In this document: positions 4,287-30,111 of the stretch, piece by piece
How positions within the stretch are numbered: the stretch's first letter is position 1
How the letters are laid out: each line of letters opens with the position of its first letter
Source: an uncultured Bacteroidales bacterium
GTDB taxonomy: Bacteria; Bacteroidota; Bacteroidia; Bacteroidales; GWA2-32-17
DNA: 64,000 bases
Direction: 5' to 3'
Assembly: GCA_964431135.1 (NCBI GenBank)
Contig: CAYSIN010000002.1
Coordinates: forward strand, 1,811 to 65,810
Translations under genes and position numbers: made by a program
The notes under the pieces: generated by a model
What the model saw: the letters and a program-made list of their open reading frames with translations, nothing else
Databases searched by the model: none
Told to the model about the DNA's origin: nothing

Positions 4287-4373
4287 GGAGAGATGGCAGA
4301 GTGGTCGAATGCGGCGGTCTTGAAAACCGTTGTGCCCGTGAGGGTACCGGGGGTTCGAATCCCTCTCTCTCCG
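4287..4373 (+). tRNA. tRNA-Ser (anticodon UGA), long variable arm, no encoded CCA
   Basis: Acceptor GGAGAGA/TCTCTCC, anticodon loop cTTGAaa, long extra arm, T-arm GGGGG-TTCGAAT-CCCTC. Folded by hand. Confidence 0.9.
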
Positions 4374-4738
4374 CAAAATTCAACAAAGCGAAGCGTTTTT
4401 TTATTTTAAGCGAATAGCAGACTTGTCTGGCAATGAGCGTAAAAATAAAAAAAGAAAACGAAGTGAGTTGGTTGAATTTTAACGTCTCCCCCAACGGGTT
4501 CAACGAAGTTAATCCCTCTCTCTCCGCAAAATTCAACAAAGCGAAGCGTTTTTTTATTTTAAGCGAATAGCAGACTTGTCTGGCAATGAGCGTAAAAATA
4601 AAAAAAGAAAACGAAGTGAGTTGGTTGAATTTTAACGTCTCCCCCAACGGGTTCAACGAAGTTAATCCCTCTCTCTCCGCAAAATTCAACAAAGCGAAGC
4701 GTTTTTTTTATTTTAAGCGAATAGCAGACTTGTCTGGC
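4361..4738. repeat. 153-bp tandem repeat (2 full units plus about 0.5), first unit starting inside the tRNA-Ser 3' end
   Basis: CCCTCTCTCTCCGCAAAATTCAACAAAGCGAAGCG recurs at 4361, 4514 and 4667. Units are near-identical, and the third diverges after CTTGTCTGGC (4738). Confidence 0.9.
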
Positions 4739-5073
4739 GTTCTTTGCGGTTAATCTTTTTTTACCGCACATGTCTCGGCTATAACGGATGTTTGGAATCA
4801 GGATTTTATAAGTTTTATAAGTAACGACGCTGGATAGAGCGATTTTTTTAATATACCCCATTTTTGTTAATTGGTTGAATATAAGCAAAATAAAGAAAAT
4901 AATTGTCTGCACTAATATTGTTAATAACTTTGTTATTAAATAATTGAATAATTGATTATTATATATAATTAATGTATTATATTTGCATTCACATAATTAA
5001 TTAGATTAAAATATGTACATTGATAAAGAAACATATTATGACAAAAAAGGAAGACCCCATAAGAGAGTTCTTT

Positions 5074-5206
5074 TAATACCGACTTGCTAACAAGTTCATT
5101 AAAACCATTCGCTTCGCTTTTGTTTTAAAACTGTTAGTCTGTCGGCATCTCGTCATTGCTGACGAGACAAAATTCATTTCATTCTTTTGTGAGCGGTTTG
5201 GTATAA
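5074..5206. repeat. Composite intergenic repeat module (R1 + palindrome + R2) upstream of the hdr-flx operon
   Basis: TAATACCGACTTGCTAACAAGTTCATTAAAAC (5074-5105), imperfect palindrome CCGAC-TTG-CTAAC...GTTAG-TCT-GTCGG (5078-5146), 8-bp hairpin TCTCGTCA/TGACGAGA, then CAAAATTCATTTCATTCTTTTGTGAGCGGTTTGGTATAA (5168-5206). It has a partner copy at 11901-11977. Confidence 0.8.
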
Positions 5207-11900: not shown

Positions 11901-11977
11901 TTAATCGACTTACTAACAAGTTCATTAAAACACGCAAACAAAATTCATTTCATTTTTTTGTGAGCGGTTTGGTATAA
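11901..11977. repeat. Second copy of R1+R2 repeat module, immediately downstream of the hdr-flx operon
   Basis: TTAATCGACTTACTAACAAGTTCATTAAAAC followed by CAAAATTCATTTCATTTTTTTGTGAGCGGTTTGGTATAA. Same order and orientation as 5074-5206 but lacking the roughly 62-nt palindrome block. Confidence 0.8.
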
Positions 11978-12050: not shown

Positions 12051-12190
12051 TATACCTTTGTGAGTGTAAAAATTATATACGGAATTTAAAAATGAACTAT
12101 TTAAGACACATATTCAATATGGCTCACAGGAACAGCATTTATCAAAACAAAGCGACTATGGATAATGAAGATATAAACGTAATGGTAAGT
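12051..12190 (+). promoter_or_regulatory. Promoter (-7 box TACCTTTG at 12053-12060) plus conserved ~130-nt leader, copy A
   Basis: Duplicated at 25777-25915. From the shared ATG (12092 / 25820), 75 of 85 positions are identical, counted by hand. Contains a 37-codon uORF (12092-12205, MNYLRHIFNMAHRNSIYQNKATMDNEDINVMVSLYRC). Confidence 0.6.
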
Positions 12191-12251
12191 TTATACAGAT
12201 GTTAGTGGCAAGACTAACAAATGACCACAAACTAAACAGACAAAAGTAGAA

Positions 12252-13499
12252 ATGAGTAATATTGATTTTAGTAAAATAACAACAGGAGTTTTAGCTCAAC
12301 AACAACTTGAGAAGAAGATTTCCGAATATAAAATTTTCTACAAGACACACTTGACGGGCGTAAAAAATAGAAATGAAGCATTAAATAAGATATATCCAAT
12401 TTGTGTAAAGTATCAAAAGACTGACCCTAAAACAGCTTTTTACACGGACAAAGAAAGAATATCATTAGAAGTTGAGACCGAAGAAGTTTTAAAAAAATAT
12501 TTCAGTTCGGACATACTTCAGTTGTTTAACAAAGAAATCCCAACACCCAAACCTAAAAGACAAATTGACTATGACAATTCGTTTTGGCTTACACTATTAG
12601 CAGGTTTTGCAAACACGTTTGAGACGTTAAATGAAAAATACAAACAGGAATTGCATTATAAACGGAATTTTCTGATTTTTCTAAATAACTGTTTGCTCAA
12701 TTTCGGTTTACACCCTGACATTTTAAGGCGAGAGGCTGATACATACAAACGATACAACATTGTTATTGAGCATTTTTTTAAATCAAAAAGCAAAATAACT
12801 GAACATAAAATTTTGCTGAGTCCAGAAACACTTCAACAAGAGTTTTTGACGCCTTACGGAAAGAAACTTCCAATACGTTTAAATGGCAAGCTAATTCCAT
12901 TTAAAAGTATTTATTCAATTCAGATTTCATCTACTCTTTTGCTTGATGACGAAATTGAACTTTATGCAAGAAAAAACAATTTCAATTGGACTTCAACAAA
13001 AAGAGACGAAAAGGATTTTATATCTTATTGTCTTGACGAAACAGATAACTTGCATAAAAATCCCTACTTGGTTTCGGAGAACGAAAAATTTAGAAACCAA
13101 AACATTTATTTCGTTGACGTCATAAGAATTGAAGAATTGAAAGCCATCAAGACAAAACAGTTTGACTTATCAAAACTTATTCGTTTATGTGAAGAACTAA
13201 ACAACAATTCTGCAACAAAGAATAATTTCAGTTCATCACTACTTGTTAGGACAATTATTGACCATATTCCACCGATATTTGGTTTCAAAAATTTTTCTCA
13301 ATTAGCAAATAACTACGCTGACGGGACAAAAAGTTTTAAAAAGTCAATGCTCAATCTTGACAATTCACTACGAAACATCGCAGACAACAATATTCATTCA
13401 CAAATTAGAACAAAGGAGGTTTTGCCAACCAAAACACAAGTTGACTTTACACAAGAGTTAGATTTATTGTTAAGCGAAATAGTAAGAAAACTAAAATGA
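12252..13499 (+). CDS. Hypothetical 415-aa protein; C-terminal ~125-aa helical domain with HEPN-like motifs (candidate effector of the two-gene unit)
   Basis: No TM, cNMP-binding, TIR or nuclease signature that I can recognise in the first ~290 aa. The C-terminus has LLVRTIIDHIPP (R333-x4-H338) and SLRNIADNNIHS (R374-x7-H382, resembling the DUF4145-type RxxGNxxAH). The function is inference only. Confidence 0.45.
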   Translation: MSNIDFSKITTGVLAQQQLEKKISEYKIFYKTHLTGVKNRNEALNKIYPICVKYQKTDPKTAFYTDKERISLEVETEEVLKKYFSSDILQLFNKEIPTPKPKRQIDYDNSFWLTLLAGFANTFETLNEKYKQELHYKRNFLIFLNNCLLNFGLHPDILRREADTYKRYNIVIEHFFKSKSKITEHKILLSPETLQQEFLTPYGKKLPIRLNGKLIPFKSIYSIQISSTLLLDDEIELYARKNNFNWTSTKRDEKDFISYCLDETDNLHKNPYLVSENEKFRNQNIYFVDVIRIEELKAIKTKQFDLSKLIRLCEELNNNSATKNNFSSSLLVRTIIDHIPPIFGFKNFSQLANNYADGTKSFKKSMLNLDNSLRNIADNNIHSQIRTKEVLPTKTQVDFTQELDLLLSEIVRKLK

Positions 13500-13536
13500 T
13501 AAATAACAGCAATACTAATAGAAATCGCATATAGTA

Positions 13537-14364
13537 ATGAAAAGACAACATAAAAACACTAGAAACAGAATGAAATATGAGAAAAGAATAACGGTATTTC
13601 TTGATATACTTGGTTTCAAAGAAATAATTAAAGCTACCGAAGACAATCAAGGAAATGACAACGAAGAAAAAATAAAATTTCTCCACGACACTATTTTGCA
13701 AATCAGAGAGCTTTTAGACATTGACAACGGTCATCAAGCAAAGTCAAAGCAAGTTACACAGTTTTCTGACAGCGTTGTTATATCTTTCAAGGAAAACGAA
13801 GAAAGCGAAGTATTTTTCACATTAAGCGACATTCAGACATTAGTAATCAATTTAGCTTTAAGAGGAATTATTTGTAGAGGCGGTATTTCATACGGAAAAC
13901 TCATTCATTCAGACAAAATGATTTTTGGACCAGCGTTAGTTGAAGCTTACGAAACAGAAAGTAAAGCAGCTTTGTATCCTAGAATTATATTGGACAGGAC
14001 TATTATTGACATTGGGAAAAAACATCACGCATTTCATCACGGAGAAATTGACGAAAAAAAAGCGATTTTGAAAATACTTAATAAGGATACTGACGATATG
14101 TTTTACATTGACTACTTTTCTAAAGCACAATCAGAACTTGACGACCCCGAATACGATATGCCGACATATATTGATAAATTAAAAGAAATCATTGAGGCAG
14201 GAATTAAAGCAGGTAAAAAATCACCAGATATAAAAGTGAAATACAATTGGATGAAAAACAAATTTAATACTATGGTAAAAGCATTCAAAGACTCTAATTT
14301 TATTTCATCACTTAATGACAGTGACCTGAAAGATTACTACAATGAACTTGAACTAATCAAATAA
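13537..14364 (+). CDS. Divergent class III nucleotidyl-cyclase / palm-fold protein (PycC-like layout), 275 aa
   Basis: Ordered motifs ITVFLDILGF (D23), QFSDSVVISF (D78), CRGGISYGKL and FGPALVEAYETES match the metal-Asp / metal-Asp / R-G-G-I-x-x-G / G-x-x-V-x-x-A order of class III cyclases. The canonical N..R pair is not evident. An alternative start is M12 (13570). Confidence 0.55.
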   Translation: MKRQHKNTRNRMKYEKRITVFLDILGFKEIIKATEDNQGNDNEEKIKFLHDTILQIRELLDIDNGHQAKSKQVTQFSDSVVISFKENEESEVFFTLSDIQTLVINLALRGIICRGGISYGKLIHSDKMIFGPALVEAYETESKAALYPRIILDRTIIDIGKKHHAFHHGEIDEKKAILKILNKDTDDMFYIDYFSKAQSELDDPEYDMPTYIDKLKEIIEAGIKAGKKSPDIKVKYNWMKNKFNTMVKAFKDSNFISSLNDSDLKDYYNELELIK

Positions 14365-14371
14365 AGCCCAG

Positions 14372-14505
14372 CCACTAACACATGGTATAGTGCATGCGGG
14401 TTTCAGCGGTTTGCGAGCGTTTGTGGCTCGTAAAAAAGGTCAGTGTAAACTGATAGGAAATCGCCTCGTAATCCCGCACGACACCATACCATCAACCGTT
14501 AGCAA
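14372..14505 (+). repeat. 134-nt imperfect hairpin element H-A (attC-like architecture) ending in GTTAGCAA
   Basis: Starts 8 nt after the stop codon. Stems are CTAAC(14375-79)/GTTAG(14498-502), ATGGTAT(14382-88)/ATACCAT(14486-92) and TGCGGG(14395-400)/CCCGCA(14473-78). The spacers are asymmetric, 2 nt against 5 nt. Confidence 0.6.
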
Positions 14506-14512
14506 CCACTTT

Positions 14513-14537
14513 CTCGTCCTCGTTTGCAACGAGGATG
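14513..14537. repeat. 25-bp hairpin repeat CTCGTCCTCGTTTGCAACGAGGATG
   Basis: 8-bp stem TCCTCGTT/AACGAGGA. An exact reverse-complement copy lies at 25699-25723. Confidence 0.85.
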
Positions 14538-14680: not shown

Positions 14681-14785
14681 CAAAAATAAACCCTGTTTAT
14701 TCATTTTGTCATAATAGAGTTAAAAAAAATTCAGAAAAATATTTTTTACTGAGAAAAATCAATATCTCAAAATAAAAATATAATA

Positions 14786-14793
14786 TACCTTTG
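14786..14793 (+). promoter_or_regulatory. Bacteroidota-type -7 box (TACCTTTG) for the nuo operon
   Basis: TAnnTTTG match 46 nt upstream of the nuoA ATG. The same ATATACCTTTG word occurs at the two leader copies. Confidence 0.45.
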
Positions 14794-14838
14794 CAAAAAT
14801 TTTGAACAGGTAAAAAGTAATAATCTATATTTAATGCT

Positions 14839-15189
14839 ATGAGTACTCAAATTTTAATAACCTTTTTTATAACGGCTGTTTTTTTGGTAGCCGCAGGCAT
14901 TGTATTAGCCGTATGGTTAGCACCGACCTCTTTTAACAAGCAAAAACCGGAGGCGTATGAATGTGGAATACCCACCAAAGGCGTTACGTGGCTACAGTTC
15001 AATGTTGGATATTACACCTTTGCTCTTTTATTTTTAGTCTTTGACGTAGAAACCGTTTTTTTGTTTCCATGGGCAGTGGTGATGAAACAAATAGGGCTTG
15101 TGGGGCTTGTTGAAATTGTTATATTCTTTATTATTTTGGTATTGGGCTTAGCATACGCCTGGAGAAAACACGCATTAGTATGGCAATAA
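14839..15189 (+). CDS. nuoA: NADH-quinone oxidoreductase subunit A
   Basis: 116 aa, 3 TM, YECG motif. First gene of the nuo order. Confidence 0.85.
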
Positions 15190-17409: not shown

Positions 17410-17775
17410 ATGAAAGAAAGTACTATAAAAGATAAAAGTTTAAAATTTGCCGTCAGAATGGTGAAGTTGTATAAATTTCTTGCCGAAGATAAGAACGAGT
17501 TTGTGATGAGCAAGCAACTTTTAAAATGTGGTACAAGCATTGGGGCAAATATCAGAGAAGGAGATTATGCAGAATCGAAATCGGATTTTATTCATAAATA
17601 CTCAATCGCACAAAAAGAATGTAATGAAACGATATATTGGCTTGAATTACTTTATTTGTCAAAATATTTAACTAAAACAGAATTTGAATCAATTAATAAA
17701 GATTGTGTAGAGTTAATGAAATTATTGACTTCCATTATCAAAACGGCAAAAAAATCATTAACCATTAATCATTAA
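17410..17775 (+). CDS. Four-helix-bundle protein (23S rRNA intervening-sequence protein / Avd-like family) inserted between nuoD and nuoH
   Basis: 121 aa. Family signature SKQLLKCGTSIGANIREG ... ESKSDFIHKYSIAQKECNETIYWLELL. Flanked by the 11-bp inverted repeat TAATGATTAAT (17376-17386) / ATTAATCATTA (17764-17774). Confidence 0.75.
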   Translation: MKESTIKDKSLKFAVRMVKLYKFLAEDKNEFVMSKQLLKCGTSIGANIREGDYAESKSDFIHKYSIAQKECNETIYWLELLYLSKYLTKTEFESINKDCVELMKLLTSIIKTAKKSLTINH

Positions 17776-25158: not shown

Positions 25159-25317
25159 ATGAGACATTATAATAAATTAAGGGCATTTGAACTTGCTGAT
25201 GAAGTTGCCGTTTTAATAGATAAAGTAACAAATGATTTCCTTAAAGATGAAATTTATGGTTTAACATCGCCAATGAGAAGAGCATCGGTTTCTGTACTTT
25301 CTAAAATTATTAATTAA
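25159..25317 (+). pseudogene. Truncated four-helix-bundle (23S-IVS protein family) gene fragment, 52 codons
   Basis: Hand translation: MRHYNKLRAFELADEVAVLIDKVTNDFLKDEIYGLTSPMRRASVSVLSKIIN*. It matches the N-terminal half of the family (..E.YGLTSQ.RRA.VS..) but stops where full-length members continue with NIAEG. Confidence 0.6.
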
Positions 25318-25649: not shown

Positions 25650-25698
25650 TGACTCCTTTCCATTTGATACCAAATCGCTAACAAAAGAATGAAAATGT

Positions 25699-25723
25699 GC
25701 ATCCTCGTTGCAAACGAGGACGA
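25699..25723. repeat. 25-bp hairpin repeat, inverted copy of 14513-14537
   Basis: CATCCTCGTTGCAAACGAGGACGAG is the exact reverse complement of 14513-14537. Confidence 0.85.
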
Positions 25724-25735
25724 GGTAGAATAGGT

Positions 25736-25759
25736 ACTTTTTAAGGGACGACTAATTTG
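25736..25759 (+). repeat. CTTTTTAAGGGACGACTAATTTGG motif (copy 3)
   Basis: Same motif as 11984-12006 and 14657-14680. Lies about 20 nt upstream of the leader-copy-B promoter. Confidence 0.7.
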
Positions 25760-25776
25760 GTGATATGAAAAAAAAG

Positions 25777-25915
25777 TTATACCTTTGTGTAAATGTAAAT
25801 TTATATACGGAATTACAAAATGAACTATTTGAGACACATATTCAATAGTGCTCACATGAACAGCATTTATCAAAACAACTCCACGGTGGATAATGAAAAT
25901 ATAATATGGTTTACA
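25777..25915 (+). promoter_or_regulatory. Promoter (-7 box TACCTTTG at 25779-25786) plus conserved leader, copy B
   Basis: Paralogous to 12051-12190. Its uORF (25820-26008) ends in a TGA that overlaps the ATG of the downstream gene (ATGA at 26005-26008). Confidence 0.6.
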
Positions 25916-26004
25916 TATAACAAAGAAATTATTTGTACAGGCAACTATTCAAACATCCAATTTGTCTTATTAATGCAAGCCGTAAATTGCATAATATTAA
26001 AACT

Positions 26005-27720
26005 ATGAAAACGTTAAAAAATATTTTACTTTGTTTTGTCCTATTTACAATGTTACTTTCAAATGCAAAATCACAAAATTTAGAATGGGCAAAGGGAATG
26101 GGTAGTACTAATAATGATGGTGGTAATTCCATTGCGGTTGACGCACATGGTAATGTTTACACTTCTGGTTATTTCAATGGAACAGTTGACTTTGACCCAG
26201 GTTTAGGAATTTTTAATTTAACTTCTATGGGTCTTGATGATATATTTATTTCCAAATTTGATGCTTATGGAAATTTTGTCTGGGCAAAATCAATAGGCGG
26301 AACAAATAACGATTGGGGCAACTCTATTGCATTGGACAATTCAGGTAATGTATATTGTACAGGATATTATTGTGGAACAGCAGACTTTGACCCAGGAGTA
26401 GGAACTTATAATTTAACTGCTACCGGTTTAAAGGACATTTTTATCCTAAAATTAGATTCTTCTGGAAATTTTGTCTGGGCAAAATCAATAGGAAATACAG
26501 GTGACGATATTGGCAACTTATTAGTTCTTGATACTTCTGCAAATGTATATATAACGGGATATTTCCAAGGTATAGTTGATTTTAATCCAGAAATAGGTGC
26601 CTTTAATTTAACAGCAGACAGTACAGATATTTTCATTTTAAAATTAGATGTTTTAGGAAATTTTGTTTATGCAAAATCCATGGGAGGAAATGGGGAGGAT
26701 ATTGGTTGTTCTATAGCGCTTGATAGTGATGGCAATGTATATACCACTGGCTCTTTTCAAGGAACTTCAGACTTCGACCCAGGAGCAGGAATTTTTAATA
26801 TGACTGTAAGTCCTGATGTATCTGGAGTATACGGTAATGTTGATATTTTTATTTCTAAATTAAATAATTTAGGAAACTTTGTCTGGGCAAAATCTATGGG
26901 AGGAGATTATTATGATTATGGCTATTCTATTGCCTTAGATGCATCCAGTAATGTGTACACTACCGGAGGATTTAGCACTCCATCAATAGACTTTGACCCT
27001 GGAGTAGGAACATTTTATTTAACCTCAAATGGTAGTTATGATATTTTTATTTCTAAATTAGATTCTTCAGGAAACTTTATTTGGGCAAAATCTATAGGTG
27101 GAAATGGAGAAGATTTTGGATACTCTTTAAAAACGGATGCTTATGGGAATGTATACACAGTTGGCGATTTTACAGATACTGTTGATTTTGATCCGGGCGT
27201 AGGATTATATAATTTATCTAATGGAGGAAATCGTGATTTTTATATTTTAAAATTAAATTCATCTGGAGATTTCGTATTTGCAATAGCATCAGGTGCGTTT
27301 TGGTATGATGAGTGTATGTCTATCATTCTTGATGATTTTGGCAATATTTATTATACCGGATATTTTGGGATGACATTCGATTTTGACCCCGGAACAGGAA
27401 CGTTTAATTTAACTTCGGCAGGAGGTAGTGACGTTTTTGTATGTAAATTAAACCAAACAACTGGACTCAATGAAAACGAATTTATAAACACAATTAAAGT
27501 TTTCCCAAACCCTTCAAATGGAAAAGTTACCATTACTGAATCAGACAATTCTAAATTAATTGAAGTATTTAATCTACTGGGAGAGAAAATTTACTCCACT
27601 ATTACTAACAATAATCAAACAACAACTGAAATTGACCTCACAAACGTTCCCAAAGGAATTTACTTCGTAAAAGTTGACAATGGAAAGCAAGTGCATATTG
27701 AAAAAATTGTTCTAAATTGA
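26005..27720 (+). CDS. Secreted SBBP-repeat (beta-propeller) protein with T9SS type-A C-terminal sorting domain
   Basis: Signal peptide MKTLKNILLCFVLFTMLLSNAKSQ. About 10 repeats of G..D.G.SIA.D..GNVY.TG.F.GT.DFDPG...N......DIFI.KLD..GNF.WAKS.GG. C-terminal VFPNPSNGKVTI...GIYFVKV. The start was moved from the track value of 25933. Confidence 0.8.
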   Translation: MKTLKNILLCFVLFTMLLSNAKSQNLEWAKGMGSTNNDGGNSIAVDAHGNVYTSGYFNGTVDFDPGLGIFNLTSMGLDDIFISKFDAYGNFVWAKSIGGTNNDWGNSIALDNSGNVYCTGYYCGTADFDPGVGTYNLTATGLKDIFILKLDSSGNFVWAKSIGNTGDDIGNLLVLDTSANVYITGYFQGIVDFNPEIGAFNLTADSTDIFILKLDVLGNFVYAKSMGGNGEDIGCSIALDSDGNVYTTGSFQGTSDFDPGAGIFNMTVSPDVSGVYGNVDIFISKLNNLGNFVWAKSMGGDYYDYGYSIALDASSNVYTTGGFSTPSIDFDPGVGTFYLTSNGSYDIFISKLDSSGNFIWAKSIGGNGEDFGYSLKTDAYGNVYTVGDFTDTVDFDPGVGLYNLSNGGNRDFYILKLNSSGDFVFAIASGAFWYDECMSIILDDFGNIYYTGYFGMTFDFDPGTGTFNLTSAGGSDVFVCKLNQTTGLNENEFINTIKVFPNPSNGKVTITESDNSKLIEVFNLLGEKIYSTITNNNQTTTEIDLTNVPKGIYFVKVDNGKQVHIEKIVLN

Positions 27721-27732
27721 CAATGACAATAA

Positions 27733-27869
27733 TTACGGTGGGTAAACCGTTCAAAATTTAGATGGCAGGGAACATGATGACACTATGTGCAAATAATATA
27801 ATTCGCAGGGGTTTGACAGGATGCTGCATGAAACAATGCCAGCCAAATTCTGTATGCAACCGTTAGCAA
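27733..27869 (+). repeat. 137-nt imperfect hairpin element H-B ending in GTTAGCAA
   Basis: Starts 12 nt after the stop codon. Stems are TTACGGT(27733-39)/ACCGTTA(27859-65, 1 mismatch), AATTT(27755-59)/AAATT(27845-49) and TGGCA(27763-67)/TGCCA(27837-41), the last two separated by a 3x3 bubble. Confidence 0.55.
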
Positions 27870-27879
27870 GTCGGTATTA
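27861..27879 (+). repeat. 19-bp repeat CGTTAGCAAGTCGGTATTA (copy 1)
   Basis: Exact direct copy at 29128-29146. An 18-nt inverted copy (TAATACCGACTTGCTAAC) lies at 5074-5091. Confidence 0.9.
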
Positions 27880-28098
27880 GATGGCATTGAGAAGGGAATT
27901 AATGACAATGCCCGAAAACGAGCAATAGTAATGAATGGTGCAGATTATGTAAGTCAAGAATTTATCGAAAAATATGGAAGACTTGGGAGAAGTTGGGGAT
28001 GCCCAGCATTACCTTTAGATTTAGCAAAAGTGAACATTGATAGTATTGCAAATGGGAGTTGCATATTTGTTTATGGAGAAAACAATTTTGCGAATTAA
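27877..28098 (+). pseudogene. 3' fragment of an L,D-transpeptidase catalytic-domain (YkuD_2-like) gene
   Basis: Hand translation: LDGIEKGINDNARKRAIVMNGADYVSQEFIEKYGRLGRSWGCPALPLDLAKVNIDSIANGSCIFVYGENNFAN*. There is no N-terminal part or start codon. The similarity begins exactly at the 19-bp repeat. Confidence 0.5.
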
Positions 28099-28136
28099 AA
28101 AAAGTTGTATTTTTGCATTTGATTAAAGTTTTTAAT

Positions 28137-29000
28137 ATGATAGAATTTAAAGAGAAATATATTAATCCATTTACCGACTATGGCTTTAAGAGACTTTTTG
28201 GAGAAGAGCCAAACAAGGATTTACTATTGGACTTTTTGAATGAACTTCTAAAAGAAAAAGAAGGGATTATTAAAGATCTGTCATATCTACCTAACGAAAA
28301 ACTGCCAATATCGGTTGGAGACAGGCGAGCAATTTTTGACATTTATTGTACCAATGAAAAAGGCGAGCAGTTTATTGTGGAAATGCAAAAAGCCGAGCAG
28401 AAATTTTTTAAAGACAGAACAATTTATTATTCCACCTTTCCAATTCAGGAACAGGCAAGAAACAAAGACAGGTTTTGGGATTTTGAATTAAAAGCTGTTT
28501 ATACCATAGGCATTTTAGACTTCGTGTTTGAAGAAAGTGAACCGGATAAATATCGACACGATGTTAAATTGACTGAACTAGAAACTCATAAGGTATTTTA
28601 CGATAAATTAAATTATATTTATCTTGAAATGCCGAAGTTTGAGAAAACTGAAAAAGAATTAGAGTCACATTTTGACAAGTGGATGTACGTTCTGAAAAAT
28701 CTCCCAAAACTTGATAGAGTTCCATATAAGTTAAAAGAAAAAATCTTCTTAAAACTATTTGAAACCGCAGAAATTGCAAAATTAAATTCAGACGAATATA
28801 AACAGTATGAAGCAAGTGTGAATGCTTATCGGGATATATTCAATATACAGAACACAGCTTTTGAAAAAGGAGAAATAGAAGGACTTAAAAAAGGAAAGAT
28901 TGAAATTGCAAAGGAAATGATAAAGGATAACGAACCTGTTGAGAAAATAATGAAATACACAGGATTAACTGAAAATGAAATTAACGAATTAAAACAATAA
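28137..29000 (+). CDS. Rpn-family / PD-(D/E)XK nuclease family 'transposase' (intact, 287 aa)
   Basis: N-terminal YINPFTDYGFKRLFGEE, FDIYC...GEQFIVEMQ nuclease core, C-terminal E-G-x-x-K-G repeat tail. The start was moved from 28059 to the ATG at 28137. A TATTTTTG box lies at 28108-28115. Confidence 0.8.
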   Translation: MIEFKEKYINPFTDYGFKRLFGEEPNKDLLLDFLNELLKEKEGIIKDLSYLPNEKLPISVGDRRAIFDIYCTNEKGEQFIVEMQKAEQKFFKDRTIYYSTFPIQEQARNKDRFWDFELKAVYTIGILDFVFEESEPDKYRHDVKLTELETHKVFYDKLNYIYLEMPKFEKTEKELESHFDKWMYVLKNLPKLDRVPYKLKEKIFLKLFETAEIAKLNSDEYKQYEASVNAYRDIFNIQNTAFEKGEIEGLKKGKIEIAKEMIKDNEPVEKIMKYTGLTENEINELKQ

Positions 29001-29004
29001 CAAA

Positions 29005-29136
29005 TGGTAACAAAGGCTAAAATCAAGCGGGCAAAAAGTGCTAATATGAAGGGTATTGCAACTAATAAACTTCATCGTAAATTGACAGTTTTGTGCTTCG
29101 AAATGCCCGCCATCTTTTAGCCTCGTTCGTTAGCAA
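29005..29136 (+). repeat. 132-nt imperfect hairpin element H-C ending in GTTAGCAA
   Basis: Starts 4 nt after the stop codon. Stems are GGCTAAAA(29015-22)/TTTTAGCC(29115-22) and GCGGGCA(29027-33)/TGCCCGC(29104-10) with a 4x4 bubble. The outer pair TGGTAAC(29005-11)/GTTAGCA(29129-35) is 6/7 complementary. Spacers are 3 nt against 6 nt. Confidence 0.6.
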
Positions 29137-29146
29137 GTCGGTATTA
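29128..29146 (+). repeat. 19-bp repeat CGTTAGCAAGTCGGTATTA (copy 2)
   Basis: Identical to 27861-27879. Confidence 0.9.
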
Positions 29147-29287
29147 AACGAAGTTAGTTTTTTTTGGCGAGGCGAATAATATCAAATTTTTTTTATGGAG
29201 TGACTTAATAATGCAGGATGAATTTCTGTTTATTTTTTTTGGAAAATTTTTGCAAAATATTTACTTTTGAAACAAATTCATGCAGGC

Positions 29288-30111
29288 ATGACCTTCAACG
29301 AAAAATACGTTAATCCGTTTACCGATTACGGTTTCAAACGTTTGTTTAGCGAAGAACCAAGTAAGGAACTGTTGCTCGATTTTTTGAACGAACTGCTGAA
29401 AAATGAACAAGCCAGAATAAAAAGCATCCATTATATCAGGTCTGACAAACTGGGTTCTACCGAATTAGATAGAAAGGCAATATTTGACCTGTATTGTGAA
29501 AACGAACGGGGCGAAAAATTTATAGTAGAACTGCAAAAGACCAAACAAAAGTTTTTTAAAGACCGAACGCTGTATTATGCTACCTTTCCCATTTGTGAAC
29601 AAGCGATTGTTGGTGAATGGGACTTTGAACTGAAAGACATTTACACCATTGCCATTCTTGATTTTGTTTTTAATGAAGACAAAAAACAGGTAAACAAGTA
29701 TCGCTACGATATAAAATTGACCTACATTAAAACACAAAAAATATTTTACGACAAGTTAATGTTCATTCATCTCGGAATGCCGATGTTGCAAAATTCACTC
29801 CCGACTAGTTGAACGAATATAAAAACAGTATGAAATATTATCGTGATATAAAAAACTCCATTGATATAGCAAGAGACGAAGGAATGGAAAAAGGAATACA
29901 GGAAAGACGCAAGGAAGGGTTAAAGGAAGGACATGAAAAAGGATTGAAAGAAGGTCATGAAAAGGGCATAAAAAAAGGACGTGAAGATGAAAAAATTCAA
30001 CCTGTGATGAACGGTTTGAATAAGGGACAGCATATTGAAACGATTGCTGAATGTACGGATTTGTCCATAACAAAAAGTAAAGAAATTAGTAAAAAGTTGA
30101 AAAAAGAATAA
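29288..30111 (+). pseudogene. Degraded second Rpn-family PD-(D/E)XK gene (internal deletion plus frame break)
   Basis: The N-terminal part (to 29812) parallels the intact copy up to F.HL.MP. About 45 aa of the middle region is then missing and the C-terminal E-G-x-K-G repeat tail continues in another frame (29809-30111). Confidence 0.7.

Follow-up and report, generated by a model that had tools for sequence, protein, structure and literature searches.

Three hairpins of an uncultured Bacteroidales bacterium as candidate attC-type sites in integron-like mobile cassettes

The window analysed here is a 64,000-nucleotide stretch of contig CAYSIN010000002.1 from an uncultured Bacteroidales bacterium. 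It contains three long imperfect hairpins, H-A, H-B and H-C, each located on the plus strand behind an accessory gene and starting 3–18 nt past a co-oriented stop codon (at 14364, 27720 and 29000). The original prediction, made from the sequence, had placed three such elements just behind stop codons; they were found there, and the boundaries given by covariance models (14372–14504, 27739–27868 and 29004–29135) shift the predicted ones by 0–6 nt. The same region contains two other kinds of repeated sequence, a promoter-bearing segment, referred to below as the landing module, and a MITE-like repeat, X. The features are listed with the scores of two covariance models of the hairpins, R1 and R2.

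5073–5206, minus strand: full copy of the X repeat (about 135 nt), with its 18-mer inverted at 5073–5091
11906–11977, minus strand: X copy with an internal deletion, directly upstream of landing module 1
12051–12203, plus strand: landing module 1 (Pc-plus-attI-like), with the −7 box TAccTTTG and a conserved leader of about 150 nt that runs to TTTATACAGAT and the adjoining GTT; junction G at 12201
12202–14498, plus strand: candidate cassette A, 2297 nt, intact, behind landing module 1, with ORFs 12252–13499 and 13537–14364 (no assigned function) and H-A
14372–14504, plus strand: H-A, attC-like site at the 3′ end of cassette A (R1, 106 bits; R2, 91.1 bits, E = 7e-19)
25665–25757, plus strand: 5′ part of X2, a variant of the X repeat, immediately upstream of landing module 2 (the related locus L040 carries an intact X2)
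25735–25905, plus strand: landing module 2, with the promoter TTTG-N19-TAccTTTG and the leader present and about 35 nt before the junction missing
25933–27720, plus strand: gene of a T9SS-secreted SBBP beta-propeller protein (Pfam SBBP and Por_Secre_tail), cargo of the decayed unit B
27739–27868, plus strand: H-B, degraded attC-like site behind the T9SS SBBP gene (R1, 68 bits; R2, 35.3 bits, E = 2.5e-5)
27862–27879, plus strand: 3′ end of X, the 18-mer, joined to H-B at G↓TT
28059–29000, plus strand: Rpn/PDDEXK_2 nuclease gene, cargo of unit C, preceded by a truncated L,D-transpeptidase-like ORF (27880–28095)
29004–29135, plus strand: H-C, intact attC-like site behind the Rpn gene (R1, 128 bits; R2, 109.8 bits, E = 2e-23)
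29129–29146, plus strand: 3′ end of X, the 18-mer, joined to H-C at G↓TT

The 5′ box of H-A is GCCACTAAC (14371–14379); stems 1 and 2 surround a loop of about 75 nt, and the 3′ spacer CAACC leads to the junction GTT at 14498–14500. H-B has its junction GTT at 27862–27864 and an aberrant 5′ box, GGGTAAAC; the junction GTT of H-C is located at 29129–29131. Folding as single-stranded DNA, proposed earlier as a check for both strands, gave better structures than shuffled sequences for H-A (z = −2.4 for the top strand and −2.0 for the bottom strand) and H-C (z = −4.5 and −2.4), but not for H-B (z = +0.3 and −0.7). A filter-free model scan found no fourth copy of the family in the window, the next best match scoring 12.6 bits.

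The comparison set consists of five genome loci and 68 metagenome loci obtained by an 18-mer scan of public collections, with about 55 of them coming from metagenome Ga0302253; the copy numbers given below are biased, since the loci were gathered via an 18-mer of the X repeat. Datasets of the population are JGI 3300028622, ENA ERZ27257500 and run SRR8476420. In one ENA sample, one contig matches 19.8 kb of the window with 100% identity and another matches a Ga0302253 contig with 99.5% identity over 14.9 kb, which indicates that the comparison loci and the window belong to the same population. Model R1 finds 27 copies of the hairpin in 743 kb, each 130–134 nt long, so the elements do recur elsewhere in this population, a point on which the original prediction depended. 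R2, an independent covariance model derived via alignment A4 from 24 copies, all outside the window, also finds H-A, H-B and H-C and gives no spurious matches in 630 kb. A MAFFT alignment without the window copies (A2) was dropped because three sequences were out of register; an alignment with explicit structure (A1) was used. A BLAST search of the intergenic regions of the window against the related loci revealed H-C homologues with 80–86% identity in L020, L016 and L008, as well as variants that have the same loop but wholly different arms.

Fourteen copies align to a single plan with a constant length of 130–134 nt. In the 5′ to 3′ direction, it comprises nnnYAAC, a 2-nt spacer, stem 1 (7–9 bp), stem 2 (6 bp), a loop of about 75 nt with the conserved motifs CAGTGG, TGACAG and AAT, the complementary strands of stem 2 and stem 1, CnnCC and GTTR. 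RNAalifold predicts 13 inner pairs, with compensatory double changes at 13 of 13. Across the 27 copies, 84.7% of cells are paired, compared with 30–38% in controls with slid partners, and the covariation score is 0.533, compared with 0.06–0.11. The AAC and GTT triplets are invariant or nearly so (26 copies). The conserved part of the boxes is limited to YAAC/GTTR, in contrast to the canonical RYYYAAC/GTTRRRY, and the three outermost positions of the R stem form base pairs in only roughly half the copies; the published attC box consensus is itself loose. The spacer asymmetry, 2 nt on the 5′ side versus 5–6 nt (CnnCC) on the 3′ side, is conserved; extrahelical bases had been proposed as something to look for, and no conserved single bulged bases were found in the stems of the aligned copies. 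In two pairs of close relatives, the copies are distinguished by blocks within the hairpin (inside the loop for L076 and L077) and not at G↓TT, suggesting extra exchange or conversion among copies.

All three window hairpins terminate in the octamer GTTAGCAA, as had been noticed at the outset. This octamer occurs six times in the window, with 2.7 copies expected, and six copies were reached in five of 100 shuffles, which is not significant. Its heptamer GTTAGCA, which deviates from GTTRRRY at two positions and not, as first stated, at one, is present in seven of 25 family copies; the constant part is GTT(A/G) only. The octamer, proposed earlier as the mark of the family, cannot serve as its signature, and neither can the 18-mer GTTAGCAAGTCGGTATTA. 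The octamers of H-B and H-C are the first part of this 18-mer, which forms the 3′ end of X in nearly all loci scanned and thus belongs to X and not to the hairpins. The X repeat is about 135 nt long, modular and MITE-like; its terminal inverted repeats are imperfect and its central part varies. It is highly dispersed, with more than 50 intergenic copies in the same genome, and its copies score with neither hairpin model. The possibility that X is a structured RNA was set aside, despite compensatory changes between MAGs, because of its MITE-like appearance and the lack of a fixed orientation to genes. H-B and H-C are each fused at G↓TT to a 17-nt X end. Since the terminal hairpin of X (CTAAC...GTTAGCAAG) looks like a miniature site, recombination between hairpin and X is a plausible origin of these fusions.

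The exchange point of integrons is G↓TT, so the 3′ box adjacent to an attC site is part of the cassette that follows; the match of the 5′ box is with the first bases of its own cassette. Nineteen hairpins have an upstream junction in the same locus, and 11 of them carry a 5′ box with 8–10 nt of perfect complementarity to the sequence following that GTT. The 5′ box matches its own adjacent 3′ box over at least 8 nt in none of 18 cases; unrelated junction pairs, taken as controls, reach 8 nt in 2% (binomial P about 1e-14). Such complementarity is the hallmark of integron cassettes that can circularise. The start of cassette A, GTTAGTGGC (12201–12209), is an exact complement (9/9) of the H-A 5′ box. 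When the ends of cassette A are joined in silico, the outer stem grows from 5 to 9 bp and the energy becomes 7 kcal/mol lower on either strand.

A search for complementary 5′ junctions of H-B and H-C found none. Landing module 2 lacks its last 35 nt or so, and H-B scores low and carries an aberrant 5′ box; the SBBP unit is therefore a fossil cassette. The segment of unit C before the Rpn gene opens with the X end, followed by the truncated L,D-transpeptidase-like ORF. This truncated gene downstream of H-B, raised originally as an objection to an integron, is real and marks a decayed unit. Units B and C are both decayed, with the hairpin of unit C intact and its 5′ side rearranged.

Most hairpins of the family have their start within −17 to +18 nt of the stop codon of a co-oriented ORF. 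Co-oriented arrays with one or two ORFs between hairpins are found in L024/L076 (four copies), L011, L020, L051 and L009. Some array ORFs begin 12–63 nt after one hairpin and finish 3–9 nt before the next; in L011, these distances are 27 and 4 nt. The cargo across loci includes several T9SS-secreted proteins, PD-(D/E)XK nucleases (among them a PADLOC candidate defence family), a DUF4411/PIN toxin, McrBC, HsdR and an SDH-type protease. Rpn genes are present in three of about 25 cassettes, being cargo in L049 and L051 as well. Such a set is typical of chromosomal cassettes. The gene of the SDH-type protease has homologues in other genomes without hairpins, which implies that it also moves by other routes.

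The 108-nt repeat located upstream of both accessory units of the window is part of the landing module. The module is about 205 nt long, extends from GAAAACTTTTTAAAAAAATTTGGTGAAATGAAAAAAAAAGTTATACCTTTGTG to GTAAGTTTACACAGATGTT and was found in at least 12 copies with 84–92% identity; its conservation ends abruptly right after GTT. The TTTG-N19-TAccTTTG element matches the established Bacteroides promoter consensus and is the putative promoter of the module. As conservation stops precisely at the GTT at which the first cassette opens, the module seems to behave like a Pc promoter with an attI site. A conserved small leader ORF (MNYLRHIFN...) was considered and rejected, since the indels between copies are not multiples of three. 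Fusion to fragments of X is a regular feature of the landing modules. A plasmid collection contains one weak partial match to the module (48 bits, 21% of the query) and no match to H-C, and viral contigs have no match to the landing-module motif. Two further objections to a classical integron can be reconsidered here. The units do have promoters, as had been pointed out, but these are part of the repeated landing module and not of the cassettes. Large core operons do lie between the sites, which follows from the landing modules being scattered and not forming one array.

Comparison of genomes shows that the flanked units vary in presence, as had been anticipated for cassettes. In the relative L080, with about 80% nucleotide identity, the last gene of an hdr-like operon is followed by nuoA after 215 nt, and the site contains no X, landing module or cassette. 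The segment 11893–14839 of the window, including the cassette A unit, is hence an insertion with respect to this relative. Two assemblies from the same population have identical sequences as far as the final hairpin of one array; beyond it they diverge, with one running into a type I R-M system.

The preferred reading, given a probability of about 0.78, is that H-A, H-B and H-C are attC-type sites that belong to integron-like mobile gene cassettes. The data show that the hairpins form one family with a common structure, that they lie in arrays, that their 5′ boxes can be complementary to upstream junctions and that a unit present in one genome may be absent from another. Excision and integration, folding of a single strand and the action in trans of an IntI-like tyrosine recombinase are inferred from these. 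The proposed cassette layout is TT-nnnnnnn, one or two ORFs, n′n′n′n′n′n′n′YAAC, the 2-nt spacer, stem 1, stem 2, the loop of about 75 nt, stem 2′, stem 1′ and CnnCC-G. Recombination inside the conserved GTT of two successive junctions would excise the unit as a circle, in which the 5′ box would pair perfectly with the first 8–12 nt of the cassette itself and so complete the hairpin. For cassette A, the predicted circle junction is CCATACCATCAACCG↓TTAGTGGCAAGACTAAC. The circle could then re-insert at the GTT that closes the 205-nt landing module, and the predicted empty landing site is GTAAGTTTATACAGATG↓TTAGCAACCACTTTCTCG; neither kind of junction was seen directly. The landing module is proposed to supply a Bacteroidetes-type promoter (TTTG-N19-TAnnTTTG) and a leader, so that captured ORFs would be transcribed.

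The recombinase was sought in 954 kb, comprising the window and the comparison loci, by tblastn with IntI1 and XerD queries and by a regular expression for the catalytic motif. The window encodes no tyrosine recombinase, in agreement with the statement that intI is missing there. No integron integrase was found in the 954 kb, and the sole tyrosine recombinase is a housekeeping XerD (144 bits on TIGR02249, with a cutoff of 265). Nor was a recombinase gene found in the sampled flanks of 12 landing modules or on a further 6.4-kb contig. The system is classed here as integron-like in operation; full integron membership is unproven, as no integrase was found in the DNA available.

These results leave some room for a different enzyme acting on the same cassette architecture. 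It might be the host Xer, working on the folded hairpin in the manner of CTX-type IMEX, or another protein, for example, the Rpn or PD-(D/E)XK nucleases of the cargo; the system would then be analogous, not homologous, to integrons. Besides the failure to find IntI in the 954 kb, with XerD the only tyrosine recombinase there, this explanation is favoured by landing modules that are multi-copy and never beside a recombinase gene, by the recurrence of Rpn-family genes among the cassettes and by a spacer geometry and conserved loop motifs unlike those of canonical attC; the mosaic arms and loops also suggest other exchange points. However, the invariant AAC...GTT that marks the exchange point is the signature of integrons, and the inner arms of dif, ATAA/TTAT, are not seen. 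Rpn proteins are not known to have site-specific activity, which counts against Rpn as the recombinase. Furthermore, the sample covers only roughly one fifth to one quarter of a genome of typical size, making an intI gene elsewhere quite possible, and genomes with CALINs often encode IntI elsewhere (PMC4889954). A non-IntI recombinase is, on balance, rather unlikely.

The original prediction had left a choice between CALIN-like cassettes and a recombination or terminator element family. Covariation, arrays and 5′ box pairing argue for cassettes, and the terminator side of this choice is poorly compatible with the data. In its broader form, the hairpins would be 3′ UTR RNA elements (terminators, stabilisers or processing sites) that have spread along with the 3′ ends of accessory genes. 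Their constant position just past stop codons on the sense strand agrees with such a role, as do the strong promoter upstream of the units and the lower fold energy of the top strand of H-C (−23.6 versus −17.7 kcal/mol for the bottom strand). Yet an intrinsic terminator would have a G+C-rich stem with a T-run and tolerate G-U pairs on the sense strand only: no terminator-like site or T-run follows the 3′ ends of the hairpins, and G-T cells (11) are about as rare across the family stems as A-C cells (9), which argues for selection on DNA pairing and not on sense-strand RNA. Gathering and permissive scans of Rfam, which has no attC family, gave no match. An RNA function would also leave unexplained why the 5′ box matches the sequence after a GTT 0.7–2.2 kb upstream and not the adjacent 3′ box, and why conservation of the promoter module ends exactly at GTT; it is considered very unlikely. 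Least probable of all is the idea that the hairpins represent selfish palindromes (MITE-, REP- or BIME-like repeats) inserting preferentially behind genes: the many modular intergenic X copies with terminal inverted repeats in the same genome, the fusion of H-B and H-C to X ends and the dispersal of the hairpins over many contigs speak for it, but the near-identical copies, terminal inverted repeats and orientation-independent insertion that define MITE/REP elements do not describe the hairpins. From one subfamily to another, their arms have entirely different sequences that still pair, there is no sign of target-site duplications, and the hairpin models do not pick up X copies; strict co-orientation with the upstream ORF, regular ORF–hairpin arrays and long-range complementarity are not properties of MITEs.

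Integrons are a textbook system of gene capture and expression, and long, homogeneous attC families are characteristic of sedentary chromosomal integrons, for example, the VCRs of Vibrio. The hairpin family shares several features with integron attC sites: an imperfect inverted repeat with AAC/GTT boxes, a conserved structure with covariation, a length within 57–141 nt, and a location immediately downstream of co-oriented ORFs, most of them without a promoter. As in integrons, each 3′ box is shared with the cassette that follows, the 5′ box can pair with the start of its own cassette, and the cargo is similarly rich in toxins, nucleases, defence genes and genes with no known function. Unlike typical attC sites, the hairpins have spacers of 2 nt (5′) and 5–6 nt (CnnCC, 3′) instead of roughly 5 and 5, YAAC/GTTR-only boxes, no conserved extrahelical bases and conserved motifs in the loop, which is usually variable; the reconstituted outer stem is 9–13 bp rather than 7. 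The Bacteroidales host is another difference. Surveys based on the standard attC model have found hardly any integrons in Bacteroidota: IntegronFinder 2.0 recorded for Bacteroidetes only cassette-less integrases and one complete integron, in Salinibacter (PMC9024848).

A CALIN is a cluster of attC sites lacking an integron integrase (Cury et al. 2016, PMC4889954). H-B and H-C, if accepted as attC, correspond to the formal definition (at least two attC within 4 kb and no integrase nearby), being co-oriented, 1.27 kb apart and without an integrase in the vicinity; related contigs contain integrase-free arrays of two to four sites. The arrays described here differ in that they open with a conserved promoter-plus-junction module, present in multiple copies scattered between core operons, whereas the CALIN definition needs none. 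The landing module resembles the integron platform (Pc and attI) in its strong outward promoter, its conservation up to G↓TT and the start of the first cassette exactly there. It differs from the platform in being present in at least 12 copies per genome sample instead of one, with no divergent intI beside it, and in having a conserved leader of about 150 nt between the promoter and the junction and fused pieces of a MITE-like repeat. As with IMEX and CTX-phi, where XerCD act on a folded single-stranded hairpin, the hairpin would be the substrate of a tyrosine recombinase encoded elsewhere; here, however, there are no dif-like arms, the core is an integron-like AAC/GTT, and gene cassettes in arrays take the place of phage genomes at dif. 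The X repeat is similar to E. coli BIME/REP, Neisseria Correia and pneumococcal BOX elements, being modular and intergenic, with terminal inverted repeats and tens of copies. The hairpin family is unlike these elements in its covariation, ORF-tied orientation and cassette junction logic. Above all, the main departure from described integrons appears to be the multi-copy landing platform, apparently unlinked to an integrase and scattered between core operons such as nuo.

A more specific form of the cassette reading is put forward tentatively, as possible rather than probable. It supposes a distributed, previously undescribed form of integron in Bacteroidales, in which a dozen or more promoter-plus-attI-like pads would be scattered between core operons, each holding one to four cassettes via unusually long attC sites of constant length. 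The pads would have spread, apparently, with a MITE-like repeat, the terminal hairpin of which could act as a secondary site, and a single trans-acting recombinase, which might not be a canonical IntI, would serve them all.

If the interpretation is correct, it would reveal a Bacteroidales lineage with many cassettes of secreted T9SS proteins, nucleases, toxins and restriction components, and would help to explain the cassette-less integrases reported in the phylum (PMC9024848). It would also provide a taxon-specific attC model for metagenome mining. Moreover, it would mean that landing platforms can exist in many copies and apart from the integrase, which would change the way in which cassette arrays should be sought.

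The H hairpins, the attC-like elements of 130-134 nt that close the gene cassettes, show mosaic combinations of arms and loops throughout the family. In the region 14716-14875, compared between two assemblies of one population (L076 and L077), the last hairpin has both arms in common and loops only about half identical; its 3′ spacer differs, and so does the DNA downstream, with a type I R-M system in one assembly and core genes in the other. The motif GTAAsTTkACAG is common to H loops (e.g. window 29077-29090) and to the end (window 12181-12200) of the landing module, a promoter-plus-leader repeat, where it lies immediately 5′ of the GTT at the landing site. Hairpin and module may thereby have a protein-binding site in common.

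Three independent cassettes carry Rpn cargo (in the window, L049 and L051). H-C, a hairpin copy in the window, is immediately followed by a second Rpn/PDDEXK_2 gene (29267-30111), which a frameshift divides into two ORFs (181 and 100 aa). The two-gene SDH-protease module is a cassette in L076; in other Bacteroidia genomes (L083-L090), it is present as an insertion without the hairpin, between unrelated core genes.

A conserved module of about 205 nt, beginning CAAGTGTAAAAAGACAGACGACAGG, was found at the following positions:
L008 10151-10355, conserved module
L076 11523-11718, conserved module
L076 14850-15045, conserved module
This module follows the last hairpin in three arrays and continues into the 5′ end of the repeat X; many cassette 5′ ends carry motifs resembling those of the module (CAAGyG, AAAAAGACAG).

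X is a modular, MITE-like repeat of about 135 nt; its terminal inverted repeats (18 nt) are imperfect, and the hairpins in its middle are interchangeable. The 68 loci L008-L075 contain more than 50 copies, and homologues from three other Bacteroidales MAGs contain compensatory changes. Copies in the window include the following:
5073-5206 (-), X repeat
11906-11977 (-), X repeat
25665-25757 (+), X repeat
Landing modules often have X directly upstream, and array ends are also a frequent position.

At window 4287-4738, three tandem units of 153 nt follow tRNA-Ser(tga), and each of them opens with a copy of the final ~17 nt of the tRNA; the units resemble a stack of attachment sites left behind by integrative elements.

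The nuo operon contains, between nuoD and nuoH, an inserted ORF of the 23S-rRNA-intervening-sequence (four-helix-bundle) type (window 17410-17775), with a truncated paralogue just 3′ of nuoN (window 25159-25317). The entire operon is flanked by a perfect inverted pair of the 25-nt sequence CTCGTCCTCGTTTGCAACGAGGATG, at window 14513-14537 and 25700-25724. This sequence is one of the middle modules of X, and inversion between its two copies would flip nuo.
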